The notes: generated by a model not told the origin, from the sequence alone. Shown: positions 12,693 through 41,568, counted from the stretch's first letter. The stretch is DNA of 64,000 bases from Candidatus Omnitrophota bacterium (GCA_903901225.1 CAIUQE010000048.1:5844-69843); one strand, 5' to 3'. Numbers and translations: made by a program.

Positions 12693-12890
12693 GCGGACCT
12701 CGTTATTTGTTTGATTTGAGCGGCGTCTGTTAACCCAATTTTTCAATATAGCACCTATTCTTCGTTTGGCAATGGAAAGAAGATTTAACATATCCGCAAC
12801 TGATCTTGAATCGCCCCTTTACTTGCGTTTGAATGTATTTTATACTTTGTTTGTTCTAATGAGTTGTCGCCTTTAACCGGAGAGTGTCCC

Positions 12891-14255: not shown

Positions 14256-14291
14256 CGCGGGGGCTGGCCAGTTACAAGGGAGAAATCGCTC

Positions 14292-15491: not shown

Positions 15492-15614
15492 ACCACAATA
15501 TTACTTCATGGCGTGGAATTAGCAAGGCGAAACTCCTCAAGTTATGGTTTTAATATTTTCAACTCGATGTTAAAATGCATGACATCATTGTTCCGTCAAC
15601 AGCAAAGGAATCCC

Positions 15615-18754: not shown

Positions 18755-18775
18755 ACCACGAATCCGGGGGCTTGT

Positions 18776-19174: not shown

Positions 19175-19176
19175 CT

Positions 19177-19974: not shown

Positions 19975-20067
19975 CGTAGGGGAGGCCCTTGTGTCCTCCC
20001 GTTAGTGAATGCGGTTATTTATAATACTCGTTAGGTTTATTGGGCCGACACAAGGTCGGCCCCTACG
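19975..20067 (+). promoter_or_regulatory. structured element: two GC-rich hairpins with mutually complementary cores, bracketed by an 8-nt outer inverted repeat
   Basis: Hairpin 1 is gggagg/cctccc (19980-20000). Hairpin 2 is gggccgac/gtcggccc (20042-20062). ccttgtgtc in hairpin 1 is the exact reverse complement of gacacaagg in hairpin 2. Outer arms are cgtagggg and cccctacg. No U-tract. Confidence 0.4.
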
Positions 20068-20212
20068 TTCTACGATATCCTCTCTGACTGTTAAGCATTA
20101 TATTTTCCCCCTACCCTTGACGCAGCCCTCTTTTATAGTATATATTTATTCTGTCGTCTTTCATTCGTTGACATTTTGGACTATATTTAAAAACCTGAAA
20201 ACAGGAGTTTTT

Positions 20213-23200
20213 ATGGTACGTTCTATTGAAGAATTATCTTGTAAGGCCTTGGTAAGAAAGTCGTTAAGCCTGTTTGTAATGGCCGCTTTCATCTTAACAA
20301 GCCTTGTGCCGCCAACCTATGCCCAGGCCGTATTCAACCTGCCCCAACCGGGTGAGATGATCGGTTTGTCCGGGGTTTATACGCCGGTCGTGCTCAAAGG
20401 CGTCTCCATTCATCCCGAAGACCCCCTTTTATTCGATTTTATCGTTGATAACGGCAATTCTGATCTCAAAGGTCAGGCTTTGACCGATGAGACCACCAAG
20501 CTTGTGAAATATTTCCTGACCGGCCTCGCTGTGCCGGAAAAGGAGCTGTGGGTCAACCTTTCGCCGGTTGAGAACAACCGTATCATGGCCGATGATCTCA
20601 GTCATACGGACGCGGGTCGCGACATGCTGGCGCAGGACTATATCCTCAAGCAGATAACGTCCACTTTGATGTATCCGGAAAAAGACCTTGGCCGCAAGTT
20701 CTGGGATGAGATCTACAGCCGCGTGAACGCGAAATTCGGCACGACCGATATCCCGGTGGACACCTTCAACAAGGTGTGGATCACGCCTGACGTGGCTGAA
20801 GTGTACCAGCACGATGGGAATGCTTTTGTGACCAAGGCGCATTTGAAGGTTATGCTCGAGGCTGATTACAATGCGCTTAACGGTGCCGCGGCCCCCATGG
20901 CTGACGCGGGGAATTCCCAGACCATCGACCTGGCGCGGGATGTGGTGCGTGAGGTGATACTGCCCGTGTTGGAGAAGGAAGTCAACGAGGGCAAGAATTT
21001 CGCGGCCCTGCGGCAGATATTCAATTCCCTGATCCTGGCCGGATGGTACAAGCATGCGTTGAAAGACAGCCTGTTGAACCAGGTTTACGCGGGTACCAAC
21101 AAGGTGGCAGGCATCGATATTGCTGAAAAGAACGCGCGGGAACAGGTTTATGCCCAGTACCTGCAGGCCTACCAGAAGGGTGTTTACAACTATATTAAGG
21201 AAGAGTTCGACAGCACGACAAAGGAGTCCCTGCCGCGTAAGTATTTTTCGGGTGGAGCCGTTCTTGATCGGGCGATGAATCCTGATATAAAAAATAAAAT
21301 TGAACTTGGGTTTGATTTTTTTAGAAAATTAGGGAAAGCACTAACCGTGGTCCCTTTTCAACTTGTTCTTAAGCAGGCACAGAACGCTGTTGAACGTACG
21401 AAAAATAATATTGCCGGAAATAAGACTTCCAAATATTTCGATCTTCCTGAGTTAAGCTCTGACGAGAACAAAGATCTTATCTCGGCTATGAATAGCCCTT
21501 TAGGAATGTCAAGATTTCTGAATTTTGATGGTGTTACATCTGCGTGGGTTATGCCGACAGTGTTGGGTATTTTAGGAATTGTGGCTGAGACAGCGGTTGT
21601 CACATTAGGACAAATACCAATGGATTATAAGTTAGTTGTTAAGAGTGTTCTGCCTTTATACAGTGGTTCGGCTTTGTATACTGCATTATATGCGTATTAT
21701 CGTAGTGCCGCACTTAATGTTGTTCAGGACGATGAAAGAAGTCGTTTGGAAAAACTTCGTGCGGTAATCTTCCTTCGCAAAATTAAAGCTAGGGAGGCTC
21801 TGTGGGATGTTTCCAATAGGGCGAAGTCTGTCGTCACTAAAGTTGCCGGATGGCTTGCCATGGATGATCGAACGCTGCGAGAAATGATCCAGACCGGGGT
21901 ATCCTCTTTTGGAGTACTAAATTATTCACGTATGACCAATCAAGAGAGGGACGCTTTGGCAGGCCAATTGGCCGCAAACAACAATTTTGAAGCCTTGGCG
22001 TTTCTTGCGATTGATCCTCCGACAAGAACCCAAGCGTTGGCATTTTTTCATGGTTGGAGCAATAGTAAAGAAGATGTTCTTGCTATAGGGAAAAATTCTA
22101 TTTTTTCGATAGCTGAGTTCTCGGGTGGGCAAAAAGAACAATTGTTCACAACATTCAGGGCTGTCGTCAACGCTGATTACGCACAGGGAGATACATTGCA
22201 AAAAATGTATTCGAAGAATCTTGACCATGTCCGCAGCGTTCAGATGCTTATCGACAATTTTAAGAAGAAAGACTGGGTACGGATTGAGTTAAATGCTTTG
22301 CGTGATGCGATACGGGATCAGATTGGTTTTGAAGGTTCTTCGGGTAATCTTTCCGGAAATCCTGAACTAACAGCAATGATATTGGAGTTGCAAAAATTAG
22401 TTGATGATAAGGAATTTGAATTATCAACAGGCGTGCAGGAGGATGGCGCGCAGGAGAGCAGGAAACCAGCTAGTCTGGAAGAGGTCAGGTTAGATAAGAT
22501 CTTCTCGAAATACTCTTTAAGTGCCGCTGCTTTTTGGGATGCATATTTCTATTATGTTGAAAAGGTCATTTATCAGGAGACAAAGAACCAGTCATTTGAT
22601 CGCGTTACAAAGTTTAAATCCGTGGGTCTGCGATTGTTAACTCCGATCATTGAAAAAGTAGCCGGTATAGACTCCGGCGTAAGTATTAAAAAGCCGGGAG
22701 AAATACAAAGCTTCTTGGATGAAAAAATCAAGGAATTCAATAAAGACCGGTCACAAACGACGGATTTCGCGGCATCGCCGATCACCCTTTTATTCACGGC
22801 ATTGAGTGCTGCCGAACAACGTGAGGCTGCATTTATTATCGATAACGTAAAACACGGGCTTTTTGGTGATGCGATGGCAGCGGTGGTTTCAAGTGATTCG
22901 AGATTTTCGCCTGCAATTAAACAATTGGCTCTTTGGTTATTAATTCAGCGTTCCTGGAAAGATCCTTATTCTGACCTGGCAACTGACCTTATTAAACAAG
23001 AGATCCGTTATACAATGCCAGAGTTGCGTGCGGTTAACAAAGATGATTTTTCGCCAAAGGATTGGAATGTGATGTTAACCAATAAGTGGATCGATGAGCT
23101 TGGCGTGATCCAGGATGAATTTAAGAAAATCACTGACTATTCAAAGGTGCATTTGGATGGTGTGGAGGACGTAGATGTGCAAAACATTTGTCAGACATTG

Positions 23201-24022
23201 AACGATGAAATTGTCGCGCCAATGTACGATACAGATCTTGTCGTTGCGCATAAAGAGTTGCATTTTAAAAAAGAAGACAGAAAGAAATGGGAAGATGTGG
23301 TCTTTCTTAACGAAACTTCATTGTTCAAACGATATATTGAATTAAGCGGCTCTCAGGAAGAATTTATGGCATTTGTTGATCGTTTTAATGTTAAAAATTT
23401 TAGCAAGAAGCGGTTGGCGCGTTTATTAAATGAGATCAACGCGCAGGTTAATTCCAATCAATATGATGAGGAAAAAAAGATTTTTCTTACAGGATGGAGA
23501 GGGCTGATCGAGCAATTTATTGAGAGTAAGCCCGTGAATGAAGTTTCTGCCCAAGTTAAAATAACAGAACGAGATGATTTTGTGCCTCCATACAGGAGGA
23601 GGATCGATGAGCTCATGCGTGAATCCTTTCCTTCGGGTCAAGATGTTAAGACAGATTCTGGCGAACCTCTTTATAGAAGGCAAATCAATAAACTTATGCA
23701 GAAGAAGAATCTCCCAGGCAGTGATAGTGCCGGGACAGTCGGGACTTCCCAAAAGGATATACAAGGCGGTATCGACCTCGGCCAGGGGGATTATCTCAAG
23801 GTCATTGGCACGGACGCGTCCGGTATGCCGAAGTTCGACCCGGCTCAGCTTATCCAGTTACAGAAGGACCTGCGCGGGATCGTTCCTGTGCCGGTTGGAG
23901 TTCCTCAGCCTGTGAATTTAAAGCCGCTCCTGGGGCTTGACCCCAACAGCGGCAACGAGAACCTCCAGACCGGCCAGCTTGACCCGGTGAAGGTTGAGGC
24001 TGAAGAGGGGGTTCCTTCCTGA
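20213..24022 (+). CDS. giant secreted protein of unknown function (1269 aa), compositionally mosaic
   Basis: Start at ATG 20213 with an aggag RBS. Signal peptide ends AQA. Central nt 21240-23700 is markedly AT-rich relative to both gene ends and to the window. No recognisable catalytic motif. Confidence 0.6.
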   Translation: MVRSIEELSCKALVRKSLSLFVMAAFILTSLVPPTYAQAVFNLPQPGEMIGLSGVYTPVVLKGVSIHPEDPLLFDFIVDNGNSDLKGQALTDETTKLVKYFLTGLAVPEKELWVNLSPVENNRIMADDLSHTDAGRDMLAQDYILKQITSTLMYPEKDLGRKFWDEIYSRVNAKFGTTDIPVDTFNKVWITPDVAEVYQHDGNAFVTKAHLKVMLEADYNALNGAAAPMADAGNSQTIDLARDVVREVILPVLEKEVNEGKNFAALRQIFNSLILAGWYKHALKDSLLNQVYAGTNKVAGIDIAEKNAREQVYAQYLQAYQKGVYNYIKEEFDSTTKESLPRKYFSGGAVLDRAMNPDIKNKIELGFDFFRKLGKALTVVPFQLVLKQAQNAVERTKNNIAGNKTSKYFDLPELSSDENKDLISAMNSPLGMSRFLNFDGVTSAWVMPTVLGILGIVAETAVVTLGQIPMDYKLVVKSVLPLYSGSALYTALYAYYRSAALNVVQDDERSRLEKLRAVIFLRKIKAREALWDVSNRAKSVVTKVAGWLAMDDRTLREMIQTGVSSFGVLNYSRMTNQERDALAGQLAANNNFEALAFLAIDPPTRTQALAFFHGWSNSKEDVLAIGKNSIFSIAEFSGGQKEQLFTTFRAVVNADYAQGDTLQKMYSKNLDHVRSVQMLIDNFKKKDWVRIELNALRDAIRDQIGFEGSSGNLSGNPELTAMILELQKLVDDKEFELSTGVQEDGAQESRKPASLEEVRLDKIFSKYSLSAAAFWDAYFYYVEKVIYQETKNQSFDRVTKFKSVGLRLLTPIIEKVAGIDSGVSIKKPGEIQSFLDEKIKEFNKDRSQTTDFAASPITLLFTALSAAEQREAAFIIDNVKHGLFGDAMAAVVSSDSRFSPAIKQLALWLLIQRSWKDPYSDLATDLIKQEIRYTMPELRAVNKDDFSPKDWNVMLTNKWIDELGVIQDEFKKITDYSKVHLDGVEDVDVQNICQTLNDEIVAPMYDTDLVVAHKELHFKKEDRKKWEDVVFLNETSLFKRYIELSGSQEEFMAFVDRFNVKNFSKKRLARLLNEINAQVNSNQYDEEKKIFLTGWRGLIEQFIESKPVNEVSAQVKITERDDFVPPYRRRIDELMRESFPSGQDVKTDSGEPLYRRQINKLMQKKNLPGSDSAGTVGTSQKDIQGGIDLGQGDYLKVIGTDASGMPKFDPAQLIQLQKDLRGIVPVPVGVPQPVNLKPLLGLDPNSGNENLQTGQLDPVKVEAEEGVPS

Positions 24023-28061: not shown

Positions 28062-28964
28062 TCAATACCTGTTCACGGAAAGGACATGAAGCACGACCGT
28101 AAAAATAAAAATGAACGTCAACGGCAGATGAAGCACGTGCCATAAATAAAAAACACGTTCATAGAAATTGAATTCCGCGACGGTAACCGCTTGCCGTAAA
28201 AAGCCATGGCTTTTGCGTTCCATCTGGGTAAGGATCAGTTGCCGGCGGCGGAGCGACCAGTGGCGCTTGAGGGCATGTTCCTGGAGGTAGGCGTCGATCG
28301 CGCGGCGTATCTCGTGCCGGGTCACGCGCGCCTCGTGGCTGACTTCCAGCGCCCTCCTGAAACTGACCGACAGCACCTTCGTCGGCGTGATGACTTTTGC
28401 CAGAAAAGAATCCAGTTCCTGCTTGATAAGGGGAATGTAAGTAAAATGATGATATGTTATTTCCTTTGATTGCGCGAAAGATTTTTGAAGGTTGACCAGT
28501 GTCGTCCTCTCCCCGTTCAAGCTTTGGCAGATCTTGATGTAAATATGTTTGCCCACCACCCCGCTGGCGGACACGATCAGGAGCGAGAACAAAGCGATGT
28601 TGCTGTTGAAGGCGCCGAGATGGAAATTGCAATGGTAAAGGATGAGCAACGGCCCGAGTAATCCCAGCGTCATGTGCAACTGGAACCACTGTTTCATTGT
28701 GCCGATAACAGTCAGCGTTTTGACGCGTTTGCGTAATGGGTAGACAAATAACAGGAGCATCATGCCGGTACCGACAAACCCGTAGATGAGGCCCTGGCCA
28801 TGTGTCGGTGTGATGAGCTCATGGCGGCTTAACCGCCACCCCGCGACCACCGCGACGACGAGGAATAAATTAAAAAGCGAAGGGCTTAATGCGTCATAGC
28901 GCTTAACGCCCCTGGCCCAGGCGGGCGCAAATCTCAGTGTCAAATTTTTAATGATATCCGGCAT
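28062..28964 (-). CDS. polytopic membrane protein of unknown function (first gene downstream of the cytochrome cluster)
   Basis: 4-5 predicted TM helices followed by a basic cytoplasmic tail. Same strand as the cytochrome genes, 9-nt gap from the upstream gene. Confidence 0.5.
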   Translation of the reverse strand: MPDIIKNLTLRFAPAWARGVKRYDALSPSLFNLFLVVAVVAGWRLSRHELITPTHGQGLIYGFVGTGMMLLLFVYPLRKRVKTLTVIGTMKQWFQLHMTLGLLGPLLILYHCNFHLGAFNSNIALFSLLIVSASGVVGKHIYIKICQSLNGERTTLVNLQKSFAQSKEITYHHFTYIPLIKQELDSFLAKVITPTKVLSVSFRRALEVSHEARVTRHEIRRAIDAYLQEHALKRHWSLRRRQLILTQMERKSHGFLRQAVTVAEFNFYERVFYLWHVLHLPLTFIFIFTVVLHVLSVNRY

Positions 28965-28973
28965 ATGGTCCTA

Positions 28974-31280
28974 CTAATAAATGATGTTCATCAGGAATTT
29001 CAAGAGGGTCATGTGCCTGGCAAGGAGGCGCTTCATTTCGGACGGGGCGGCATCCATGATCCTGACAGGCAAAAACGGGTTCGCTCCTTGCTTTAGAAGA
29101 GTCTTGACAATAACGCTGTTGTTGCGTTTGACGGCCAAAGCGAGCGCCGAGTTCCCCGCTTTGTTCATCGGTGTGACGTCCGCCCGATGGCCCAGTAACA
29201 GAGCGACCACATCCGCGGCGTCCGCGTCGACGGCCAGCATGAGGGGCGTATTGCCATCGTTGCTGGCCACATTGACAAGGGCTCCTGAGCTGACCAGCAA
29301 CAAAGCACACTCAATGCTGCCGGCGTGCGCGGCGAAAGACAAGGCCGTATGGCCTTCGTTGTTGCGGCGCGTTGTATCAGCTTTGCGCCCAAGAAGGAAT
29401 TTAACGGCCTCCTGGTGACCGTTCTCGGCGGCGATCATGAGCGCGGTGCGGCCCGACGCGTCGCTGGTGTTGATATCCATTTTTCGCGCGAGGAAGATAT
29501 CGATGAGATCAACGTCTCCCATCTTGACAGCGGCCAGGAACGGCCCCAATGCGCCGCCAGATGTCATGTCCCAGCTGGCCCCGGCATTTAAAAGCAACTT
29601 GGCAACGGGGCCGTGGCCGTTGGCAATGGCCTCAGCCAGGGCCTTGTCAAAAACGCGCGGGAATTTTTCGTGGCTGCCATATTCCTGGATAAGGCGGTTG
29701 ACCACGGCTTCATGGCCATTACCCGCCGCAAGGATCAAGGGCGAAGTTTTTTCCGGGTTGAGCCCGTCATTCACGCGTGCTCCGGCTTTGAGCAGGCGCG
29801 CGACAATATCCAGGTTGCCACGCCATGCGGCCCGGCTTAGCGGTGTCTGACCTTCTGTATCAGTCGCGTTGACATCAGCCCCCTGGAGGATCAAAAGGTC
29901 GACGATATCCTTTTCCCCTCGCCATACGGCCAGGATGAGGGGCGTTCTTGTCGCCGTGGTTTTTAAAAGAGAAGGATCGACCCCGGTAGACGGCAACATA
30001 ACTTTACCTGTGGCCAGGAGGGCCTCACTGACATCTTTATACCCTTTCAGTAAAGCGATGGATAAGGCATTCTCGTGGTTGCTGGTGGTCCGGGTGACAT
30101 CCGCTCCCTGGTTGATGAGGAACTTGACCATGGGAAGGTCGTCCTGCCAGGCTGCCAGCATCAAAGGTGTCAGGCCTTTAGTATTGGGGAAATCGATCTT
30201 GCTGCCGGCTTTTAGCAGCATTTCGGCTGACGTGAAGTCTTTCTTTTGCACCGCAAGCAGCAGCGCGTTGTCACCGTCATTACTGAGGATGTCGGGGTCA
30301 GCTCCTTTTCGGATGACGTCGGGAAGCCATGCCGTCAGGCCGCGCGCCACGGTTTCCATGAGAGCCGTGCGTCCGTTGCGGTCTTTGTAATTGATGTTCA
30401 GGCCAGCCGCGATGATCCGGTCAAAATCATCTTTGCGCGCGTTCCTGATCGCTGATAAGAAAAGTTCTTCGCGCGGCAGGTCAGGGTCGTTCTGGCCCCA
30501 CCGGGCCTGCTGTTGTATTGTTTTTAGCCTTTCGATCGCCGGACTGAACCCCTTACCCGCGGCTCTTGTGTACCAGGACAAGGCGTCCTGATAGCTTGAA
30601 GCGGTCCCTTTGCCAGTTTCGATGAGCTGTCCCAGCCGGTATTCAGATTCAAGGTCCCCTTGATCAGCAAGGGTTTTATAGAGGTTCACGGCTAGCGCGA
30701 AGTCTTTGTTGTTGACGGCTTGCATGGCCCTGTCATGCAGTTGTTGCTGCGATGAAAGTATGGCCGATGGCTTGAGGGCATTTATGGTTTCAGAGGAAGA
30801 TGTTTCTTTGATCCGAAGAGATGTCGTGCCGTTAATCTTGATATCCGCCAGGCGGTCGACAGCGGGGGTGTAATTCTGGCCGGCTGATTTTTTATACCAG
30901 GATAAGGCTTCGGGAATACCCTGAAGCACTCCCCGGCCGGATTCGAGCATGGAGGCGACATTGAATTGGGCTTTGGCGTTGCCTTTTTCAGCAGCCTTTT
31001 TATACCATGAAAAAGCCGTCGGGTAGTCTTTGGGAACTCCCTTCCCTGTCTCGTAAAGAGCGCCGAGTTGGTATAGCGCGTCGGGATCGCCCTGATCGGC
31101 CAGGCCGGAATATAGCGTAAGCGCAAGTGTGTAATCTCTCGCGCGGATCGCACGCCTGGCTTCATCCATTGGCGATGGCCTGGAGGGAATATCCTGGGCG
31201 CGGGCATCGAGCCCAACGCCCAGGATAAGTAACGGGATAACGGCGGATACACAACGCCGCCATGACCGAGCATGCGACAT
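28974..31280 (-). CDS. secreted Sel1-like-repeat plus ankyrin-repeat protein
   Basis: Signal peptide. Sel1-like repeats (YQLGALYETGKGVPKDY...; EYRLGQLIETGKG). About 13 ankyrin repeats (GRTALM..A...G..DVV..LL..GAD). Start chosen at the ATG at 31280 (MSHARS), which has a ggaga RBS. Confidence 0.7.
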   Translation of the reverse strand: MSHARSWRRCVSAVIPLLILGVGLDARAQDIPSRPSPMDEARRAIRARDYTLALTLYSGLADQGDPDALYQLGALYETGKGVPKDYPTAFSWYKKAAEKGNAKAQFNVASMLESGRGVLQGIPEALSWYKKSAGQNYTPAVDRLADIKINGTTSLRIKETSSSETINALKPSAILSSQQQLHDRAMQAVNNKDFALAVNLYKTLADQGDLESEYRLGQLIETGKGTASSYQDALSWYTRAAGKGFSPAIERLKTIQQQARWGQNDPDLPREELFLSAIRNARKDDFDRIIAAGLNINYKDRNGRTALMETVARGLTAWLPDVIRKGADPDILSNDGDNALLLAVQKKDFTSAEMLLKAGSKIDFPNTKGLTPLMLAAWQDDLPMVKFLINQGADVTRTTSNHENALSIALLKGYKDVSEALLATGKVMLPSTGVDPSLLKTTATRTPLILAVWRGEKDIVDLLILQGADVNATDTEGQTPLSRAAWRGNLDIVARLLKAGARVNDGLNPEKTSPLILAAGNGHEAVVNRLIQEYGSHEKFPRVFDKALAEAIANGHGPVAKLLLNAGASWDMTSGGALGPFLAAVKMGDVDLIDIFLARKMDINTSDASGRTALMIAAENGHQEAVKFLLGRKADTTRRNNEGHTALSFAAHAGSIECALLLVSSGALVNVASNDGNTPLMLAVDADAADVVALLLGHRADVTPMNKAGNSALALAVKRNNSVIVKTLLKQGANPFLPVRIMDAAPSEMKRLLARHMTLLKFLMNIIY

Positions 31281-31314
31281 TCCTGGATCTCCCATAAAAA
31301 GCACAATGCTATTA

Positions 31315-33540
31315 CTAAAAGATCAGCCTGTACCCGGTAGTAATGAACATTTCACGCGATTTGGACTTAATGCCCGACGCGATCTCGCTGACCCACTCTG
31401 TTCCGCCGTCAATTTCCAGTGTCGCGAACTTTGTCAGGCTGTACTCCAGGCGCATTTCGGGACGATAAGCCCAGCGTTCGTCGGCTGACGCTTTCGTGTC
31501 TTTAAAGTCCGTATGAAAACGCGGATTGATCCTGGTTTTGGCCGTCAGCGGGTAACGCGCGTTGAGGTTGAACGCGTAATCATAATATGTTTGCGCGTCG
31601 GTGAACACCAGGCCCGGGATCAAAGAGTCCTGCTCTTTGATAAGGTTGCTGATGTTCAGTTCGGTTGAATAGGTCCAGTCCGGCCCTGTTGAATTGGAGC
31701 CTTCAACCCCGCCGGACGTGATCATACCTTCGAGCGCGGAGACCGAGACTTCACCCGTCCACTGGAGATTTTCCCTGATGTCCTGGCTCACACCGGCCGT
31801 GGCCGACTTGCTGTTCGTCGAGCGGTCAATGGCCAGTTGGCGCAGCTCTTTTCTGGTATAAGTGGACTTAAGGTCGGATATATTCGCGACACCCATCCCC
31901 TGGATCGCGTTGTTCGTTGTGATCAAAGGCGACTTGCGGTAGTCTGCCGTCAAGCTGAGCGTGGTCTTTGTCGGCAAGGTGTAACGCATGTTGGTGGACG
32001 CGATATTGAGCCTCTGGAAATATGTATCATAATCGACAAGTGTGAAGAGCGATTTTTTCCGGTCAAAATACCTGACCTCGCCGCCCACCGCCTGGCGGTC
32101 CGTCAAGCCTGAATTCTGCTGGGCAATGGCAAAGGTATTGAATGTCCAGCGCGCTTTGGGGATCCCCCAGTCGATGTTGATCCCTTCGAACAGTTTCTGC
32201 GTGATCACCCGTGATATTTTCACGCTATCAACCGGATAACCGCTGACAACGTTGAGCTTTATCCCTGGGGTTATCTGCTTGGACACATGGACACCGTCAA
32301 AACGACCCAATACGCCGCCCGTTGAGAGTGTCTGGCGTCCGGCGCGCGCGTAGAAACCGAGTTTTTTGGACTTGATATCAACGGCCATGGCGCTCAAGCG
32401 ATTCTCATTCTTGCTGCCGCTGAGGTAATTCTGTGTTTTTCCACCGCTGAAACGCGCCTTGATCTCGAGGTCCCGGCTCTTCCACCGCCCGTTGATATCA
32501 ACGTCGCTGGCAAGGTTGTTCAACGTGTCGTTTTGTTTGCTTCCTTTGATCTTTAACATGTCCCTGTAATAGTACTGGGACGCGCTGCCGAAATACTGCG
32601 ATGACCACACGGACTCGGCGATCTTTCTGCTGGCGCCGGCAGGTTCCTTGAGAGGGGCCTGGGCGGCCTGGGTGGAGGTAACAACACCCGCCAGGCGTTG
32701 ACGGACACGGTCGGCGTCGGGGCCTTCGGGATATTCTTTAAGGTACTGGCTGTATTCAGCGGCCGCGTGGGCCAGTTGCTTGTTGCGTTCCCGCGCGACA
32801 CCCAACAATTCCCGCGCCTGTTTTTTCAATTCTCCTTGAGCTGTCAGAAGGACTTTCAAATATAGCTGGACCGCGGCGTCATAATCAGGCTTCACCAGCG
32901 CATCTTTGGCTTCCCGCATGAGCGAAGATTCAGGCTGGTCTAGAGGGGCTTCAGGCAATGCCAATTCCCCTGCTTTCCTGGCTTCGAGCCCGGCCCCCTG
33001 CGGCGGCTGGGCTGTAGTTACCCTGATGGTCACGGTTTTCATATCCGCGCTGTCATGCACATCGATCGTAACATCTTCGTTAAAATCGAGGATGATCTGC
33101 GGGTTTTCCGTGTCATTGCCATCGAAAGTGATATTGTTCAACGGGATGCCTGAGGAGTGATCCCAGGAAGGGATCAGGTTCGAATGGATGATGTCGAGAT
33201 CCTCCTGGTCCAGTTTTGAATGGTCGACGGTCTTTAACTGGATGTAGAACTTGCTCGCTTTCCCGGAGGGTGACGCATTCTTGAAGCGGTAGGAATAGAG
33301 CGAGTTCATCTCGATCTTGTAACCTTCGGAAATTGTCTGGATCTTGATATCTTCCATGGCGCCGGCATAAGCAGGTACGACGGAAAGTAACCAAATGCTT
33401 AGGAAGACTGTTAATGATCTGACGCCGTTGGCCAGTGTTTCTTGAAGAAAAGTTTTATTCACGAACGTTGAGCCGGATATATTTTTTATAGTGAGCACGA
33501 TAGTCTTTCTTACTTGTTGAATGTTCTTGTTGAGTGACAC
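31315..33540 (-). CDS. outer-membrane protein: N-terminal TPR-like helical region plus C-terminal beta-barrel
   Basis: Signal-peptide-like segment. Helical repeat region. Alternating amphipathic C-terminal half ending in the aromatic residue ...YRLIF. The listed start overlaps the upstream cytochrome by 31 nt; an alternative GTG at 33462 would avoid the overlap. Confidence 0.5.
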   Translation of the reverse strand: MSLNKNIQQVRKTIVLTIKNISGSTFVNKTFLQETLANGVRSLTVFLSIWLLSVVPAYAGAMEDIKIQTISEGYKIEMNSLYSYRFKNASPSGKASKFYIQLKTVDHSKLDQEDLDIIHSNLIPSWDHSSGIPLNNITFDGNDTENPQIILDFNEDVTIDVHDSADMKTVTIRVTTAQPPQGAGLEARKAGELALPEAPLDQPESSLMREAKDALVKPDYDAAVQLYLKVLLTAQGELKKQARELLGVARERNKQLAHAAAEYSQYLKEYPEGPDADRVRQRLAGVVTSTQAAQAPLKEPAGASRKIAESVWSSQYFGSASQYYYRDMLKIKGSKQNDTLNNLASDVDINGRWKSRDLEIKARFSGGKTQNYLSGSKNENRLSAMAVDIKSKKLGFYARAGRQTLSTGGVLGRFDGVHVSKQITPGIKLNVVSGYPVDSVKISRVITQKLFEGINIDWGIPKARWTFNTFAIAQQNSGLTDRQAVGGEVRYFDRKKSLFTLVDYDTYFQRLNIASTNMRYTLPTKTTLSLTADYRKSPLITTNNAIQGMGVANISDLKSTYTRKELRQLAIDRSTNSKSATAGVSQDIRENLQWTGEVSVSALEGMITSGGVEGSNSTGPDWTYSTELNISNLIKEQDSLIPGLVFTDAQTYYDYAFNLNARYPLTAKTRINPRFHTDFKDTKASADERWAYRPEMRLEYSLTKFATLEIDGGTEWVSEIASGIKSKSREMFITTGYRLIF

Positions 33541-36500
33541 GCGCCACAGTCTTGTGTGGTACGCGGATGATCATGCGACTTTCCAGTGATCTGGATGCCG
33601 TCATGCGATTGTCCATCATGGCAGCTGGAACAAGTTCCGGATGCATCTGAATGGTTGAATTTGCTGCTTGAAACATTCCAACTTGAGGTCAAATGGCAAT
33701 TGCCGCAATTATTGGTGGTATTTAAATGGGAAGCTCCTTTTCCTGTAGCTTTTGATCCGTTATGGCACGAGGAACATGTTCCCGTGACCGCTGTATGATC
33801 AACGCGTGCTACCGGTGTCCAGGCCACGGTCGAGTGGCAACTGTTGCAGGTGCTCGCGGAACTGATGTGGTTAGCCGATTTGCCTGTAGCGGATGATCCG
33901 TTGTGGCAGGTGGAACATGCCGCAGAAACGCCGCCATGGTCAAAAACCGCGGGGGTCCAGGCATTGGTGTTGTGGCAGGCGTCACAGCTCGTCGATGTCG
34001 GGATGTGCGTGGCGTTCTTACCCGGAGCCGTCGAGCCGTTATGGCAACTGGAGCATGACCCTGTCACCGAGGTGTGGTCTACCCTTGAGACAGAGCTCCA
34101 GGAAACGGTCGTATGGCAGTTATTGCAAATATTGTTCGTCGTGATATGGGTCGGAGGCTTACCGCTCGCGCTTGTGCCATTATGGCAATTCGCGCATGAA
34201 CCGCTCACCGCGTTGTGGTCCATCCGCGTCACGGGGGTCCAGGCCGAGGTCGAATGACAGCTGTCGCAGGTCGTTGCCGAAGCAATATGGTTTGGCGATT
34301 TCCCGGTGGCCGTGGTGCCATTATGGCAGCTTGAACAAGAGCCGCTGACCCGCGAGTGATCCAGGCGTGACACGGCCCAGCTCGATGTTGTGTGGCAGGA
34401 GTCACAGGACGCTGATGTTGCGATATGGTTCCCCGGCTTCCCTGTCGCCGTTGAGCCATTGTGACAGTTCGCGCAGGTGCCGGTCGCCGCGGCATGGTCC
34501 ATGCGGGTGACGGGCGACCAGGCTGAGGTTGAATGGCAACTGTCGCAGGTTGTTGCGGAGGCGATATGATTGGCCGGCTTCCCCGAGGCGGTCGTGCCGT
34601 TATGGCAGCTGGAACATGTGCCGCTGACCTTGGAGTGGTCCAGACGTGACACGGTCCAGCTCGACGTTGTATGGCAGGCGTCACAGGCCGCGGATGTGGT
34701 GATGTGATTTGCAGGTTTTCCTGTCGCCGCCGACCCGTTGTGGCAGTTGGCACATGTGCCGGTCACCGCGGCATGGTCCATGCGGGTGACGGGCGTCCAG
34801 GCTGTGGTCGAATGACAGCTGTCGCAGGTCGTCGCGGAGGCGATGTGGTTCGCCGATTTTCCCGGTGCCGTTGTGCCGTTATGGCAGCTGGAACACGTCC
34901 CGCTGAGCTTGGAATGGTCCAGCCGGGACACGGTCCACGATGATGTCGTATGGCAGGCGTCACAGGCGGCGCTTGTGGCAATGTGCGTGCCCGGCTTGCC
35001 TGTGGCGGCTGATCCATTATGGCACGCGGCGCACGCTCCTGTCACCGCCGCGTGATCAAGCCTCATCACGGGTGACCACGCCGTTGTCGAATGGCAACTG
35101 TTACATGTTGCCGCGGAACTTATGTGCGTGGGAGATTTTCCGGTCGCGGTCGTTCCGTTGTGGCAGCTTGAACAACTGCCGCTTACCTTGCTGTGGTCCA
35201 GCGATGTCACGGCCCAGTTGTTGGTGCCATGGCAGGCGTCACAGCTGGCGCTCGTGGCGATATGTGTGGGCGATCTTCCCGTAGCGGCAGACCCGTTGTG
35301 GCAGCTCGCGCAGGTTCCTGTCGCCGCCGTATGGTCCATCCTTGCCAGCGGGGTCCAGGCTGATGTGGTGTGACAACTGTTGCAGGTTGTTGCGGCAGCG
35401 ATGTGCGTTGGCGATTTTCCTGTCGCTGTAGTACCGTTATGACAACTCGCGCAGGTCCCGCTGGCCTTGGTGTGGTCAAATGAAGATACCGCCCAACTGT
35501 TGATGCTGTGGCATGAATCACAGCTGGCGCTTGTGGCAATGTGGGTGGCGGTCTTGCCCGGCGCCGTTGATCCGTTGTGGCATGATGCGCATGTTCCGCT
35601 AACGGACGCATGGTCCATTTTTGTCAAGGGGGTCCAGGCCGAGGTTGAATGGCAACTGTTACAGGTCGTCGCGGAACTGATATGCGTCGCGGACTTGCCC
35701 GTCGCGGACGTCCCGTTATGGCAGCTCGCGCAGGTCCCGGTGACCTTGTTATGGTCAAGTGAGGCCGCTGCCCAAGTGGTTGTGCTGTGACAGGAATCAC
35801 ACGTGGCACTGGTGGCGACATGTTTGGCAGGCTTGCCTGTGGAGATGGTCCCGTTATGGCAGCTTGCGCAGGTCCCGGTCACGGCCGCGTGGTCCATTTT
35901 TGTCAACGGCGTCCAGGCTGATGTGGCGTGGCAACTGTTACAGGTCGTCGCGGTGCTGATATGTGTGGCTGACTTACCTGCCGCGGACGTCCCGTTATGG
36001 CAACTGGCGCACGCGCCGCCGCCGGTCTTGTTGTGGTCAAATGATGATACAGCCCAGCTGTTGACGCTGTGGCAGGCATCGCAGCCGGTTGATGTGGCAA
36101 TATGCCGGGCCGGCTTCCCTGTCGCGGCGCGCCCGTTATGGCAATTCGCGCACGTGCCGATACCGGCCGCATGATCCATCTTGGTCAGGGGTGTCCAGCC
36201 GGTTGTCGTATGGCAACTGTTGCAGGTTGCCGTCGAACTTATGTGTGACGGAGATTTTCCCTGCGCGGTCGTCCCGTTGTGGCAACTGGCGCATGTCCCG
36301 GATGCTCTTTTGTGGTCGAAAGAAGCCACGGCCCAGCTGTTGGTGGTGTGACACGTGTCGCAGGCATCGTTGGTCAGGATGTGACGGGACGGTTTTCCTG
36401 TCGCGGTCGTCGTATTGTGGCAACTGGCACATGTCCCTGATGCCCTGGAGTGATCGAACTTTTTGACGGCCCAGCTGTTGGTGGTATGGCACACTTCACA

Positions 36501-37058
36501 GCCATCGGTCGTGACAATATGGCTTATCGGCCGGCCCGTGGCATTCTGGCCGTTATGGCAGCGGGCACAAACGCCGATGACCTTACTGTGATCAAATTTA
36601 ACCTTGGTCCAGCTGGAAGTGACATGGCAGGTGTCACAGTTGGCAACTGTCGGGACGTGCCCGATGTCCTTCCCGCCCGCTGTTGTCCCGTTGTGGCAGT
36701 TGAGGCATGAGCCGATCACCGCGTTATGGTCAACCGAAACATTGCTGCTGAAATTTGTTGATGAATGGCAATCCTGGCAGCGTTCGCTGCTCCTGATGTG
36801 GTTGACAGGCTTTGACATGGCCTGGATGCCCGCGCCTGAAGTGTGGCAGCCGTCACAGGTGTTGGGCGTGTTCTTGAAGCGGCCTTGCGCGTGGCACGTC
36901 TCACATGTCAGCCCGGCATGGGCCCCGGTGATGGCAAAGCCCGTCGTGTTGTGGTCGAACGTTCCGGTATCAGCCTGTGCTCCTGCAGGAAGCAGCGCCA
37001 GGACGAAAGCCAGCGCCCATGTCATGAAAGCCAAAAGGTTTATTCGTTTATCGCTCAT
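33510..37058 (-). CDS. secreted giant multiheme c-type cytochrome (49 CxxCH motifs in 1182 aa)
   Basis: Signal peptide ends AQA. I counted 49 CxxCH motifs. Most of the protein is built from tandem ~47-aa diheme repeats. ATGA overlap with the upstream 27-heme gene. Confidence 0.85.
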   Translation of the reverse strand: MSDKRINLLAFMTWALAFVLALLPAGAQADTGTFDHNTTGFAITGAHAGLTCETCHAQGRFKNTPNTCDGCHTSGAGIQAMSKPVNHIRSSERCQDCHSSTNFSSNVSVDHNAVIGSCLNCHNGTTAGGKDIGHVPTVANCDTCHVTSSWTKVKFDHSKVIGVCARCHNGQNATGRPISHIVTTDGCEVCHTTNSWAVKKFDHSRASGTCASCHNTTTATGKPSRHILTNDACDTCHTTNSWAVASFDHKRASGTCASCHNGTTAQGKSPSHISSTATCNSCHTTTGWTPLTKMDHAAGIGTCANCHNGRAATGKPARHIATSTGCDACHSVNSWAVSSFDHNKTGGGACASCHNGTSAAGKSATHISTATTCNSCHATSAWTPLTKMDHAAVTGTCASCHNGTISTGKPAKHVATSATCDSCHSTTTWAAASLDHNKVTGTCASCHNGTSATGKSATHISSATTCNSCHSTSAWTPLTKMDHASVSGTCASCHNGSTAPGKTATHIATSASCDSCHSINSWAVSSFDHTKASGTCASCHNGTTATGKSPTHIAAATTCNSCHTTSAWTPLARMDHTAATGTCASCHNGSAATGRSPTHIATSASCDACHGTNNWAVTSLDHSKVSGSCSSCHNGTTATGKSPTHISSAATCNSCHSTTAWSPVMRLDHAAVTGACAACHNGSAATGKPGTHIATSAACDACHTTSSWTVSRLDHSKLSGTCSSCHNGTTAPGKSANHIASATTCDSCHSTTAWTPVTRMDHAAVTGTCANCHNGSAATGKPANHITTSAACDACHTTSSWTVSRLDHSKVSGTCSSCHNGTTASGKPANHIASATTCDSCHSTSAWSPVTRMDHAAATGTCANCHNGSTATGKPGNHIATSASCDSCHTTSSWAVSRLDHSRVSGSCSSCHNGTTATGKSPNHIASATTCDSCHSTSAWTPVTRMDHNAVSGSCANCHNGTSASGKPPTHITTNNICNNCHTTVSWSSVSRVDHTSVTGSCSSCHNGSTAPGKNATHIPTSTSCDACHNTNAWTPAVFDHGGVSAACSTCHNGSSATGKSANHISSASTCNSCHSTVAWTPVARVDHTAVTGTCSSCHNGSKATGKGASHLNTTNNCGNCHLTSSWNVSSSKFNHSDASGTCSSCHDGQSHDGIQITGKSHDHPRTTQDCGACHSTRTFNK
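33940..36450 (-). repeat. in-frame tandem array of ~141-bp coding repeats (about 17-18 units, several nearly identical)
   Basis: Repeating protein unit CASCHNGTxATGKxxxHIATSAxCDxCHxTxxWTPVTRMDHAAVTGT. Adjacent double units (~280 bp) are almost identical at the DNA level. Confidence 0.8.
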
Positions 37059-39025
37059 TTACTATCCCTGATGAAATATTTCTTGAACGTATCAACGGCA
37101 TGACACAGGCCGCAATTCTCGCCGAATTGTCCTTTATGGACGTCATCGTTCTCATGGCACGCGAAACAATCCGATGAAGTATGCCGGCCTTTTGCGAGGG
37201 GTTTGTTATGGCACGCTGCGCATTTGATCCCCGCGTGCGGCCCCTCAAGTTTGTATTTGGTCTGTCGGTCATGGTCGAATTGCCACAACTTCCAGCCGTT
37301 GGGATTGTGGCATTGGCCGCAATCCGTCCCCAAAGCGCTTTTATGCGTATCTTGCCTGGCGTGACATGAACCACAATCAGGCTGGGTGTCTTGATAAGCG
37401 GCCGAATGATGACATTCTGTGCATGCCAGGACAGCATGCTGGCCAATGAGCGGAAAATGAGTCAGGTCATGGTCGAATTTTGACACATCCTGCCATTTCC
37501 CGGCATTATGGCAACGCTGACAATCGCGCGCGGACGCGCTTTTGTGGACATCATCTTTTTGATGACAACTGGCGCAATCTGTCGGCAGCCTCGTCCCGTG
37601 TTCCAGCGGGGCGTTATGGCAAGCGCGGCATTTTAACGTTTCGTGTGCTTCAGTCAACAAAAATTTTGTCATAATATTGTGCTTAAAATCCCACTGTTTC
37701 CAGCTGTCAGCCGTATGGCATTGCGCGCAATCTTCACCGAGGGCACCTTTATGCGTGTCGTCTTTTTCATGGCAGGAAGAACACGCGCGTTTAGCGTCTT
37801 TGAACGCCGCGCTAAGATGGCATGTGTTACAAGCCAGAACAATATGCGGGCCTTTTAACTGGAAACGAGTCCTGTCGTGGTCAAATTTAACGTTAACTTT
37901 CCAGCCCGCATCGTTGTGGCAGGACTGGCAGTCCTTCCCTTCCTGCCCTTTGTGCACATCCTGCGCCTGATGGCAGGACAGGCAAGCCTTGTCGATTTTC
38001 ATATCAGCCGAAGCTATCCTGTGACAGGCCTCACAATCGGCAGCCCTATGTTTCCCTGACAACAAGAAATGCGTGTCGCGGTCATGGTCAAAGGTGACCT
38101 TTTTCCATCCGGATGTGGTGTGGCACTGTTCGCATTTGGTCCCGTTCTTGGCTTTATGGGTGTCGTCCAGTTTATGGCACGCCAGACAATTTGTCGGAGT
38201 GGTTGTCGTAAAAACATTCGCGGCATGGCAGGCCGCGCATGCCGTCTGGAGGTGCTTTCCCGTCAAGGCGAACTTGGTCCCTTTGTCATGGTCAAAAGAG
38301 ATGTTCTTCCATCCACGGGTTGAATGGCACTGTTCACAACGGGCATCACGGGGGCTGTTATGGACATCATTGATCAGATGGCACGCCACGCAAGCCACGG
38401 CTGTTTTGGTGTATTTTTCATTAACATGGCAGATATTGCAGGCGACGTTCACATGCTTCCCGTTCAGTGGGAAATTTGTTTTGGCATGAACAAAGAGCGC
38501 GTTTTTCCAGCCGGTGTCATTGTGGCATCGGGCGCAATCTTTACCAAGTTCTTCATGATGATGATCATTCTTGGCGTGACAGCTGTAACAATCTTCGGGA
38601 GCAGCCCGGTAAGGGCGTCCGGGTTGATGGCATGAGCGGCATGTCACGCTCGAAAGAGCGTGGGCCCCATGGAGCGCGAAGTCTGTCCGGTCATGCTTGA
38701 AGGTTTCTTTATCCAGACGGACAATGTCATACGCGCGGCCTTTATGTTCCGTGTGGCAGGCCTTGCAAGCCTTATCTTCCTCGCCCGCGCGCCGGCCGTG
38801 GAGGCCTTGATGGAGCGTGATGTCAGAGGCCACATCCTTGTGGCAGTCCAGGCATATCAGATCCTGTTTGTTCTTGTCGAAAGCAGAATGGCATTTTGGA
38901 CACTGCCCTTCGTAGGCCGCGTGGGCCCTGGTCAATGGCCCGGGCATGACGAACAGTTCGATGAGATTAACGCGATAAAGTTGGAACAGCGCTATCAGTA
39001 TGAGCACGACCAGAGCGCTGATCAC
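37055..39025 (-). CDS. membrane-anchored multiheme cytochrome, c7/c3-polymer-like (27 CxxCH motifs)
   Basis: N-terminal TM anchor. 27 CxxCH motifs, roughly three per ~70 aa, resembling triheme c7-like modules. GTG start per ORF track. Confidence 0.8.
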   Translation of the reverse strand: MISALVVLILIALFQLYRVNLIELFVMPGPLTRAHAAYEGQCPKCHSAFDKNKQDLICLDCHKDVASDITLHQGLHGRRAGEEDKACKACHTEHKGRAYDIVRLDKETFKHDRTDFALHGAHALSSVTCRSCHQPGRPYRAAPEDCYSCHAKNDHHHEELGKDCARCHNDTGWKNALFVHAKTNFPLNGKHVNVACNICHVNEKYTKTAVACVACHLINDVHNSPRDARCEQCHSTRGWKNISFDHDKGTKFALTGKHLQTACAACHAANVFTTTTPTNCLACHKLDDTHKAKNGTKCEQCHTTSGWKKVTFDHDRDTHFLLSGKHRAADCEACHRIASADMKIDKACLSCHQAQDVHKGQEGKDCQSCHNDAGWKVNVKFDHDRTRFQLKGPHIVLACNTCHLSAAFKDAKRACSSCHEKDDTHKGALGEDCAQCHTADSWKQWDFKHNIMTKFLLTEAHETLKCRACHNAPLEHGTRLPTDCASCHQKDDVHKSASARDCQRCHNAGKWQDVSKFDHDLTHFPLIGQHAVLACTECHHSAAYQDTQPDCGSCHARQDTHKSALGTDCGQCHNPNGWKLWQFDHDRQTKYKLEGPHAGIKCAACHNKPLAKGRHTSSDCFACHENDDVHKGQFGENCGLCHAVDTFKKYFIRDSK

Positions 39026-39175
39026 CAGGTTAAAACTTTTTTTCTTTCCTGCGGATTCGATAATAACTCCTTTTCGAAAAAAATATCTGTGTAAAAGATA
39101 CTATATATAATTAACAAAGCAAATTTATTTTATGAAATTTTGGGATCAAAACAACGAAGAGGAGCTACTGTCTGG

Positions 39176-39589: not shown

Positions 39590-39612
39590 GCAAGACCCGG
39601 GGGTTGAATTGC

Positions 39613-40308
39613 CTATTTGCCGTACACTGTCTGTAATTGCGCGACTTTGGGGAACTCCGCGTAGAATTCACCCTGGGGACCCACGAAGCCGGCCCCTGAC
39701 CTCTTGATCGTTACCGCCGTATACCCGCCACTTTTGGTGTTGGGGATATTGATCGTGAACACCTCATCGGCCGCGGGAGTTGCCGCTGATGCCGTTACAG
39801 ATGCCGCTGGGGCTGTTGCAACCGGCTGGGGCTGTGTTATCGATGCCTGAACGATGACAGGGGCCGGCGCGGGTTGTGTGACAATGACCGGTGCCTGTGT
39901 CATTGTCGCAGGTTGCTGAACGACCTGGTATCCATAACGCGTGTAAATGTAATAAGTGCCGTTATCGACGTAGTACGTGATACCGTTGATCACAATGGGC
40001 CGGTATTCCGGAGGGATCGCGGCCACCACGGCGCCGATCGGCGGGGTTACAAGGACAAAGTCACCGCCTATTTTGGTGTAATAAAGCCCATCATAATAGT
40101 AATATCTCGCTTCCCTTGTCCGCACAACAAAGGCGTCGTCGGGAACAAAGGTCAAATGAAGGCCAAACGAAGGGCGCTCGTGATAGCGATAATAATGATG
40201 GTCTTCGTGACGACCATTGTCCCTGGCGAATGACAACGAAGGCGGTGCCAATAATGACAATCCCATAATTAGCGCCGACACCTTCGATATTTCTTTTATA
40301 CTGAACAT
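39613..40308 (-). CDS. secreted Tyr-rich protein, paralog A
   Basis: Signal peptide. Y-rich core (ARYYYYDGLYYTKIGGDFVLV...INGITYYVDNGTYYIY). Pro/Ala/Thr/Val-rich linker. Conserved C-terminus GPQGEFYAEFPKVAQLQTVYGK shared with 40885..41490. Confidence 0.55.
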   Translation of the reverse strand: MFSIKEISKVSALIMGLSLLAPPSLSFARDNGRHEDHHYYRYHERPSFGLHLTFVPDDAFVVRTREARYYYYDGLYYTKIGGDFVLVTPPIGAVVAAIPPEYRPIVINGITYYVDNGTYYIYTRYGYQVVQQPATMTQAPVIVTQPAPAPVIVQASITQPQPVATAPAASVTASAATPAADEVFTINIPNTKSGGYTAVTIKRSGAGFVGPQGEFYAEFPKVAQLQTVYGK

Positions 40309-40346
40309 GGCGAACCTCTTGTTTTGAGCTGGCAGGTCCAGTCCTG

Positions 40347-40808
40347 TTACCTGGTCTGCATGGTTTCAATGACCCGCTGACTTACACCTTCCCTGCGCAG
40401 ATAACTTATGTCATCAGCCGTGAGGGCATACGTTGAATTAGTGGTCCTGATTCTGGCAATGATCTCATCCCCCGACAAGCCCTGCTGTGTCCAATCAACG
40501 ATCTGCTGCATCGTTATTTGGGAGATCGGAGTGGCGCGTGACGCGACCGGGACCTGTCTGGGCGTAGCGTTCTTGTTCTCGATCTGTGACCCCGCAATGC
40601 CACCCGCGGCCGCGCCCAAAGCACCGCCGATCAAAGCGCCGCCGATGGCATGGTCGCCTTTTTGCTGATGCCCCACTACGCCGCCGACAACAGCGCCGAG
40701 TATGCCGCCGATCCCGGCGCCCTCAGCGACCTTGGTCTGGTTCTCGGCGCAGCCGGACAATGCCAGCGCGTAGACCGCAATGATTAGTAGATAGACTTGA
40801 TTCTTCAT
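40347..40808 (-). CDS. glycine-zipper lipoprotein
   Basis: Lipobox LALSGCA. Glycine zipper GIGGILGAVVGGVVG...GALIGGALGAAAGGIAG. Small globular C-terminal domain. Confidence 0.55.
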   Translation of the reverse strand: MKNQVYLLIIAVYALALSGCAENQTKVAEGAGIGGILGAVVGGVVGHQQKGDHAIGGALIGGALGAAAGGIAGSQIENKNATPRQVPVASRATPISQITMQQIVDWTQQGLSGDEIIARIRTTNSTYALTADDISYLRREGVSQRVIETMQTR

Positions 40809-40884
40809 TCCCTGCCTCCATGTTTGATGATTTAATTATCAAAGGCCGCCATGTGACCTGATGGGCCGCATTTTAGCACTTTTT

Positions 40885-41490
40885 TCATTTTGTATACATA
40901 ACACGTAATTGCTCGACCTTGGGAAATTCATTATAAAATTCTCCCTGGGGTCCGATAAACCCGCTGCCTGACCGCGTGAGATTTACAGCCGTGAACCCGC
41001 CCTGGGAATTTGGCACATTGACGGTAATGGCTCCCTGGGCGCTGGCAGGAGCAGTTGCCGGGGTGATCACTGTAGGCGGCGCGACAACAACAGCGGGCTG
41101 ATAAATGACCGGTTGAGGAACGACCTGATAACCGCCCGCGACGGGAACATAATAAGTCCCGTTATACTCAAAATATGCGGTGCCGTTGACAATGTACTGC
41201 CGGGATCCGGCGGGAATAGCGTAAACGATCGCGTTAACAGGGGCCGTTTCAACGATATAGGTGTAAGAAACGGGTGTGTAATAACGGGGCGGATAATACC
41301 TGTGGGCATAATAGTCCCTCCAGGGGTCATAATCCCTGAAAGAGCCCCTTCCACGATGGTCCGCGACGCCGATATCTATCCCCCATGAAACACCGGCATG
41401 GGCTGTTGTTGGCGTGAAGGACAAGATTAGGAAGGCCAGGATGCTCACACACAAGGACACGGGAAAATTCAATTTGTTCGAGCTATACAT
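40885..41490 (-). CDS. secreted Tyr-rich protein, paralog B
   Basis: Start at ATG 41490 (MYSSNK) with a ggagg RBS. Signal peptide. Same architecture and C-terminal GPQGEFYNEFPKVEQLRVMYTK motif as paralog A. Confidence 0.55.
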   Translation of the reverse strand: MYSSNKLNFPVSLCVSILAFLILSFTPTTAHAGVSWGIDIGVADHRGRGSFRDYDPWRDYYAHRYYPPRYYTPVSYTYIVETAPVNAIVYAIPAGSRQYIVNGTAYFEYNGTYYVPVAGGYQVVPQPVIYQPAVVVAPPTVITPATAPASAQGAITVNVPNSQGGFTAVNLTRSGSGFIGPQGEFYNEFPKVEQLRVMYTK

Positions 41491-41568
41491 AGGTACCTCC
41501 ACAGGATCGTTTGCGTTCCTGTTAATTAGACAACAACACACCTAAAAAAGTTCCCATAAAATAGATCA

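Follow-up and report, generated by a model that had tools for sequence, protein, structure and literature searches.

A 49-heme tandem-repeat cytochrome gene in a putative PCC3-type porin-cytochrome cluster from a Candidatus Omnitrophota bacterium

A stretch of 64,000 nucleotides from a Candidatus Omnitrophota bacterium (GCA_903901225.1, CAIUQE010000048.1:5844-69843; hereafter the window) carries on its minus strand an open reading frame (ORF) of 1182 residues with exactly 49 CxxCH heme motifs, and the question it raises is to what kind of system a cytochrome of this size and density belongs and what it could do there. An initial annotation of the window had described a secreted, extremely heme-dense and repetitive cytochrome, and the ORF, the motif count and the heme spacing support that description. 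Our analysis further indicates that the gene very probably encodes the large "extracellular" multiheme cytochrome (MHC) of a porin-cytochrome cluster of the PCC3 type, a class proposed to connect bacterial cells electrically with minerals outside them and defined by He et al. in 2017 as comprising a porin, an extracellular MHC (eMHC), a periplasmic MHC (pMHC) and an inner-membrane protein (IMP) (PMC5566968).

Gene layout and the PCC3 class

Five genes that point the same way and lie -4 to 11 nt apart appear to form one operon, in which the 49-heme gene comes second: 27-heme cytochrome, 49-heme cytochrome, barrel protein, Sel1/ankyrin protein and 300-aa IMP (Table 1). None of the other ORFs in the 64-kb window contains a CxxCH motif. 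In the published description, PCC3 has a repetitive eMHC that is rich in Thr, Ser, Ala and Gly and carries 34 hemes in the median case and up to 85, one per 22-39 aa. The median heme number of its pMHC is 21, and its IMP, ~300 aa long, has five transmembrane (TM) helices, the motif WX3HX13H on TM3 and TM5 and SGXXG on TM4 and was proposed to bind two b hemes (PMC5566968). In Gallionellaceae, pMHC classes of 21, 24 and 27 hemes were subsequently described (Hoover et al., 2023; PMC10734462).

All four core genes of this description have a counterpart in the window. With 49 hemes and 24.1 aa per heme, the giant repetitive cytochrome falls within both published ranges. The neighbouring cytochrome contains 27 CxxCH motifs and 63 His, with a heme spacing of 33/17/18 that resolves into nine triheme c7-like units, and it matches Pfam Cytochrome_C7. 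The IMP has five hydrophobic segments, WxxxHx13H at both aa 93-111 and aa 275-293 and SGxxG at aa 134-138; its residues W93, H97, H111, S134, G135, G138, W275, H279 and H293 are invariant in 32 homologues, and it has no Pfam or NCBIfam match. The gene of the barrel protein begins 11 nt past the stop codon of the 49-heme gene. AlphaFold2 modeled this protein with a mean pLDDT of 85.7 and 22 strands over aa 299-726 as a C-terminal barrel, preceded by a signal peptide, an N-terminal beta domain and TPR-like helices, and the Foldseek matches of the model in the PDB were outer-membrane barrels (MOMP, FimD, OmpF and AlgE).

The same genes recur together elsewhere. A scan of 185,579 species genomes with the IMP alone returned 80 loci, in which the order is nearly universally IMP, pMHC (18-33 hemes, mode 21), small-residue-rich MHC and homologue of the window barrel protein. 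A homologue of the 27-heme protein adjoins the IMP gene in nearly all of these loci, and a barrel homologue, in some cases with a match to PF10082, directly follows the eMHC gene in 60 of the 80. Taken together, the sequence features, the layout, the barrel prediction, the IMP motifs and the synteny across the 80 loci, all of which are observed for this operon, make PCC3 membership of the 49-heme protein very probable.

Repeat array and family of the 49-heme protein

The 49-heme protein contains 98 Cys and 100 His, and a scan of the whole protein for the variant heme motifs CxxxCH, CxxxxCH and CxxCK returned none. The number of motifs, the density of about one heme per 24 residues and the Sec-type N-terminus, MSDKRINLLAFMTWALAFVLALLPAGAQA before the cleavage site and DTG after it, all agree with what had been annotated; this N-terminus was read by eye as a signal peptide without a lipobox Cys, and a lipobox-like N-terminus is present in only 13 of 120 homologues. 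The remark that the inter-heme sequence is almost only Ser, Thr, Ala, Gly and Asn is likewise correct for the composition, these five making up 57% of all residues.

Profile searches place the protein among known cytochrome families at a distance. Pfam Cytochrome_C7 matched in 22 stretches, accompanied by the MtrC/MtrF II-IV domain, Cytochrom_c3_2 and Paired_CXXCH_1, and TIGR04257 (nanowire_3heme) scored 48.6 against a cutoff of 40. TIGR03508 (DmsE/MtrA decaheme) reached 195.6 bits against a cutoff of 192.2, a score summed over 11 partial stretches of which the best covers model positions 68-249 of 258. An MtrA/DmsE orthologue, with a single ~300-aa decaheme domain end to end, was ruled out by the 11 partial stretches and the 49 hemes. 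When the PDB was searched with the full protein, a weak match to ActA was obtained (6f0k, E=4e-4); the repeat profile matched MtrC best (9eov_A, E=6.5e-5), followed by ActA, NrfH and UndA, and neither search returned a close solved relative. The relations to the Cytochrome_C7, MtrC and DmsE/MtrA models are supporting but remote.

Hemes 4-47 (aa 118-1142) lie 23 or 24 aa apart. Two types of heme unit alternate, CxxCHNGxxAxGKxxxHIxxxxx and CDxCHxTxxWxxxxxDHxxxxGx, and these 23-aa units combine into a 93-aa tetraheme period. Tandem Repeats Finder independently reported periods of 141 and 279 nt across 34172-36492, so the tandem nature of the array had been correctly recognized. Its supposed homogeneity had not: several adjacent 94-aa double units had been described as nearly identical in DNA, and the pairwise DNA identity of the 93-aa units is 60-81%, with most pairs at 60-72% and the maximum of 81% reached by the units that start at aa 676 and aa 769. 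The longest exact DNA repeat in the entire gene measures 30 nt. At the protein level the 11 aligned tetraheme units show a mean column identity of 71% (62-89% between units). Units compared in register have saturated synonymous sites (pS 0.53-0.91) and a pN of 0.08-0.24, and the resulting dN/dS of ~0.06-0.2 between repeat units indicates that the protein is under selection. We therefore read the repeat units as old duplicates held similar by purifying selection on the protein. Recent duplication or gene conversion within the array was ruled out by the saturation of the synonymous sites.

We compared the protein with its relatives, of which 2685 were found at E<=1e-10. Family statistics were taken from 55 complete eMHC ORFs out of the loci retrieved with the IMP; these have 8-89 hemes (median 29, interquartile range 20.5-37.5), with at least 49 hemes in 5 of the 55, a median of 27.5 and a minimum of 23.4 aa per heme, and a small-residue fraction with a median of 0.46 and a maximum of 0.60. 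The 120 best-scoring homologue clusters, a set biased to long proteins, have 32-75 hemes (median 56), and 84 of them have at least 49. On these sequence comparisons the window protein belongs to the top tenth of its family by heme count and sits near the dense, low-complexity extreme, yet inside the family. The heme density had been called unusual even among large multiheme cytochromes; that description fits only when cytochromes at large are the reference, whereas within its own family the protein lies at the edge of the range and not beyond it, with relatives reaching 89 hemes.

The diheme consensus CxxCHNGxxAxGKxxxHIxTxxxCDxCHxxxxWxPxxxDHxxxxGx is common to the whole family, and the 279-nt period is found in many of its members. 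The closest orthologue comes from a metagenome-assembled genome (MAG) labelled Candidatus Omnitrophota (locus L003), which has the identical five-gene order with each protein 43-58% identical to its counterpart. Its eMHC is 54% identical and aligns end to end save for four ~46-aa insertions, so that it carries 57 rather than 49 hemes. These insertions and the common 279-nt period indicate that the family evolves as diheme and tetraheme modules are gained and lost. Exact repeats are far longer in several relatives, at least 400 nt in L005 and L046, 279 nt in L078 and 133 nt in L080, and the window gene accordingly ranks, by its sequence, among the less homogeneous members of the family. L005, from another MAG labelled Candidatus Omnitrophota (JACKFL010000006.1), encodes at 12749..19195 an eMHC of 2148 aa with 89 CxxCH motifs (24.1 aa per heme), more than the 85 that were the largest number reported in 2017. 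Because of its exact tandem repeats of at least 400 nt, this copy number needs long-read confirmation, unlike that of the window gene.

The nearest relatives are found in MAGs labelled Omnitrophota, Planctomycetales and Verrucomicrobiota. Homologues also occur in Aquabacterium, Rubrivivax, Comamonadaceae and Rhodocyclaceae, groups related to taxa in the original description of the class (PMC5566968). Outside their own sequence clusters, the five operon proteins have relatives of 58% identity at most in the collections searched.

A putative heme wire and its alternatives

We propose a path for electrons that would link the quinone pool with the outside of the cell via the IMP, the 27-heme chain, the barrel and the 49-heme protein. 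Four conserved His of the 300-aa IMP are presumed to bind two b hemes, the 27-heme chain of nine c7-like triheme units would be long enough to span the periplasm, and the 22-strand barrel would provide the outer-membrane step between the two cytochromes. The 49-heme protein would be exported by Sec and would bind each heme covalently at CxxCH; because each unit has one extra His, every heme can be bis-His ligated, one further His per ~23 residues serving as the second ligand throughout. The small Ser, Thr, Ala and Gly side chains would leave little but a thin sheath round a continuous heme chain; if this chain is linear and each heme adds 8-9 angstrom, as it does in MtrA or OmcS, it would by our own reckoning reach ~40 nm. 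The array grew as tetraheme modules of 93 aa (279 nt) and diheme modules of 46 aa were duplicated. Thus, the 49-heme protein is likely a single-chain bis-His heme wire that would form the outer limb of a trans-envelope conduit for extracellular electron transfer. In this proposal we infer heme loading, the extracellular location and the contacts between components; the same applies to the substrate and to the direction of the electrons, which could be uptake from Fe(II) or minerals or export.

A heme wire had been suggested in the initial annotation; it is the best reading and matches a hypothesis published for the PCC3 eMHC class (PMC5566968), with the reservation that its linear shape finds no support in the AlphaFold2 model. 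Indeed, this model of the full 49-heme protein, built on a 50-sequence alignment, is unusable for wire shape (mean pLDDT 52, pTM 0.24), and it is one of several points that count against the proposal. Outer-membrane export of the 49-heme protein is unexplained, because there is neither a lipobox nor a dedicated secretion gene in the operon. The PCC3 assignment was made by the features of the published description rather than by alignment to the reference proteins from Sideroxydans lithotrophicus ES-1 and Leptothrix cholodnii SP-6. The window IMP gene lies at the 3' end of the operon rather than at the 5' end as in most loci, so that the genes are circularly permuted and the IMP comes last instead of first. 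Furthermore, homology to a characterized family of known function, which had been named as a possible refutation, was borne out in part: the family is described and named, but as late as 2025 no PCC3 member had a verified function (PMC12442390). The operon also differs from published PCC3 clusters in its extra Sel1/ankyrin-repeat gene between porin and IMP, in a barrel modeled with 22 strands where the 2017 predictor gave PCC3 porins up to 42 transmembrane regions, and in closest relatives from MAGs labelled Omnitrophota or Planctomycetales, not Proteobacteria.

The layout follows the logic of MtrCAB and MtoAB from Shewanella and Sideroxydans, in which a periplasmic MHC, an outer-membrane barrel and an outer MHC are combined, and the sequence searches point the same way (MtrC as best PDB match of the repeat profile, the MtrC/MtrF II-IV Pfam match and TIGR03508 just above its cutoff). 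In contrast to those systems, the window cytochromes have 27 and 49 hemes instead of 10 and 10, the outer cytochrome is without a lipobox, the barrel is preceded by an N-terminal beta domain and by TPR helices, unlike that of an MtrB-type porin, and the inner-membrane partner is a dedicated His-motif protein, not a tetraheme cytochrome of the CymA/NapC type. A second comparison is with the GSU1996 family of Geobacter c7-domain polymers, or "periplasmic nanowires" (PMC10138318). The 49-heme protein resembles them in being one polypeptide with small heme domains in tandem and in its matches to Cytochrome_C7 and nanowire_3heme, and the neighbouring 27-heme protein is a true triheme-unit polymer; the 49-heme protein itself repeats by two or four hemes (46 or 93 aa) rather than by triheme c7 domains. 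GSU1996 has 12 hemes, so that the window protein has four times more, and the gene of the latter lies next to that of a barrel protein. Neither the full protein nor the repeat profile retrieved a GSU1996 chain when the PDB was searched by sequence.

The 49-heme protein could nevertheless stay in the periplasm as GSU1996 does, acting as an electron store (capacitor) or conduit, with the barrel having another partner or role. We consider this unlikely, and it stays a live rival because the Sec signal peptide has no lipobox and the operon no secretion-system gene. The strong Cytochrome_C7 matches and the nanowire_3heme match would suit it, the "extracellular" label of PCC3 MHCs in the literature is derived from localization predictors only (PMC5566968), and a capacitor role has itself been raised for PCC3 cytochromes (PMC10734462). 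It is disfavoured by the separate 27-heme c7-type protein, which already suits the periplasmic role, by the position of the barrel gene immediately after the eMHC gene in three quarters of the loci (60 of 80), and by small-residue fractions of ~0.3 versus 0.4-0.6 in the two cytochromes, a difference that is consistent across loci and suggests different environments.

Long-range conduction on a continuous chain of close-packed, mostly bis-His hemes is also what links the proposal to the filament cytochromes OmcS, OmcE and OmcZ. These known filament subunits have 4-8 hemes and polymerize non-covalently, whereas the window protein is one covalent chain. Were it nonetheless the subunit of such a filament, joined head to tail into micrometre-long nanowires, the high heme density and bis-His ligation would be as expected, and the first and last heme units, which are off-pattern with a spare or missing His, could allow ligation between subunits. 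However, no OmcS, OmcE or OmcZ chain was among the PDB sequence matches of the full protein at E<=0.001 or of the repeat profile at E<=1, so a kinship with these proteins, with which the initial annotation had suggested a comparison, was not borne out, and a 49-heme single chain beside a barrel and a periplasmic partner has the layout of a porin-cytochrome system; we regard a polymerized filament as very improbable. More improbable still is that the array is an assembly artefact of collapsed or chimeric repeats and the heme count wrong. The gene is repetitive, and relatives such as L005 and L046 carry exact repeats long enough to mis-assemble, but the longest exact repeat of the window gene is below the length of usual reads and assembly k-mers, and its reading frame is intact and under purifying selection. 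Across the array, three assemblies from different samples agree with the window at 99.99-100%, the independent contigs L001 and L002 at 99.99% and 100%, respectively, and at least nine contigs carry precisely this protein. Collapse or mis-assembly is thus very unlikely, and of the two risks that had been annotated for the array, repeat-number variation stands, on an evolutionary time scale as in the four insertions of L003, and assembly collapse does not. The single-chain wire of a PCC3-type conduit is the reading that we prefer over these alternatives.

Neighbouring genes and wider meaning

Table 1. Positions of the 49-heme gene, its subregions and the other operon genes, counted from the first nucleotide of the window.
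Feature	Position	Strand	Basis
49-heme c-type cytochrome gene, putative eMHC of PCC3-type cluster	33510..37058	-	ORF, CxxCH count, Pfam, homologues
Sec-type signal peptide, aa 1-29, cleavage after AQA, without lipobox	36972..37058	-	Read from translation
Tandem array of 44 heme units (aa 118-1142), equal to 22 diheme units of 46-47 aa or 11 tetraheme units of ~93 aa	33633..36707	-	Heme spacing, Tandem Repeats Finder, alignment
Best-conserved array core, aa 210-954	34197..36431	-	As for the array
27-heme cytochrome (656 aa), putative pMHC of PCC3; 4-nt overlap with next gene	37055..39025	-	CxxCH count, Pfam, synteny
Outer-membrane protein (727 aa), putative PCC3 porin	31315..33498	-	AlphaFold2, Foldseek, synteny
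Sel1 and ankyrin-repeat protein with N-terminal signal peptide; 776 aa by ORF, ~768 aa from first Met	28974..31304	-	Pfam Ank_2, Ank, Sel1
IMP (300 aa), putative di-heme-b quinone-linked PCC3 IMP	28062..28964	-	Motifs, hydrophobic segments

The Sel1/ankyrin protein has an orthologue at the same position in L003 (43% identity). Among the 58 PCC3-like loci with a full upstream flank, 37 have a homologue within 10 kb of the IMP gene, 9 of them adjacent and co-oriented and 25 upstream and divergent; examples of the gene lie at 7962..9965 in L003, 7972..9945 in L005 and 7941..9968 in L006. The protein is mentioned in neither of the two PCC3 papers (PMC5566968, PMC10734462) and may be an undescribed accessory component of a PCC3 subclade. 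A broader reading is possible, and we put it forward tentatively, as less than probable: the operon would represent a distinct PCC3 subclade of non-proteobacterial lineages (MAGs labelled Omnitrophota, Planctomycetales and Verrucomicrobiota), with the Sec-exported Sel1/ankyrin protein as a fifth functional component and the length of the wire tuned by gain and loss of 46- and 93-aa heme modules (8-89 hemes). The Sel1/ankyrin protein could then serve, for example, as a periplasmic scaffold or chaperone for threading or maturing giant cytochromes.

Several further observations concern the other operon genes. Upstream of the GTG start of the 27-heme gene (39026..39100, minus strand), in-frame codons encode IIESAGKKKSFNL, with a Lys-rich n-region, and these codons are preceded by a Shine-Dalgarno-like AAGGAG; translation may thus begin at a non-canonical ATT or ATC near 39067, a few codons upstream of the GTG. 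Of the public gene callers, one gave 403 aa for this gene and another gave no gene on that strand. In the barrel protein, a periplasmic-looking N-terminal beta-sandwich (aa 48-161) precedes a TPR/BamD-like helical domain (aa 191-276), and some homologues have a SPOR domain in place of, or besides, the N-terminal domains. The sole difference between L001 and the window lies at the 5' end of the IMP gene, where ~100 nt (L001 18086..18185) stand for 240 nt (window 28734..28973); the L001 IMP is called at 211 aa, probably because of a gap in the scaffold.

Immediately upstream of the operon (39613..41541, minus strand) are two DUF6515 proteins with a glycine-zipper protein of outer-membrane type between them, an arrangement shared by L001. 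The flanks of the operon otherwise hold ordinary Gram-negative housekeeping genes, including an RND efflux system, HtpG, pyruvate kinase, a 2-oxoacid:ferredoxin oxidoreductase and sensor kinases. On the plus strand, a 1337-aa ORF at 20009..24022 lies in a patch of low GC content (43-47% versus ~54% for the window). Neither Pfam nor NCBIfam matches it, and its hydrophobic N-terminal and central segments are accompanied by a long, charged and partly helical-looking remainder; the ORF may be of foreign origin or encode a surface protein specific to the lineage. Rfam returned nothing at gathering thresholds anywhere in the window, and a scan for promoters and terminators across 27400-39700 was uninformative, its counts matching the shuffled expectation.

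No paper dealing specifically with this family emerged from literature searches on Omnitrophota multiheme cytochromes and on giant tandem-repeat cytochromes. By 2017 the PCC3 class had already been described with such heme numbers and densities, with the composition and the repeats, and with the idea of a wire, and the present example, a diverged member of a described and uncharacterized class, leaves the knowledge of this kind of cluster unchanged. What is modestly new are the non-proteobacterial nearest relatives, the permuted operon order and the recurrent Sel1/ankyrin gene; the window thereby adds evidence of the family beyond Proteobacteria and a candidate accessory protein. It also adds a well-assembled, diverged example in which each repeat unit is distinct in DNA, and because every unit differs, this gene should be easier to synthesize and sequence than its relatives with identical repeats. 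PCC3 clusters are widespread, the IMP alone having 2131 relative clusters at 50% identity, and they encode some of the most heme-dense proteins known, with no member of solved structure or tested function. If these proteins are indeed single-chain wires tens of nanometres long, they would represent a second route to long-range extracellular electron transfer besides polymerized cytochrome filaments, and would be relevant for iron cycling and bioelectronics.

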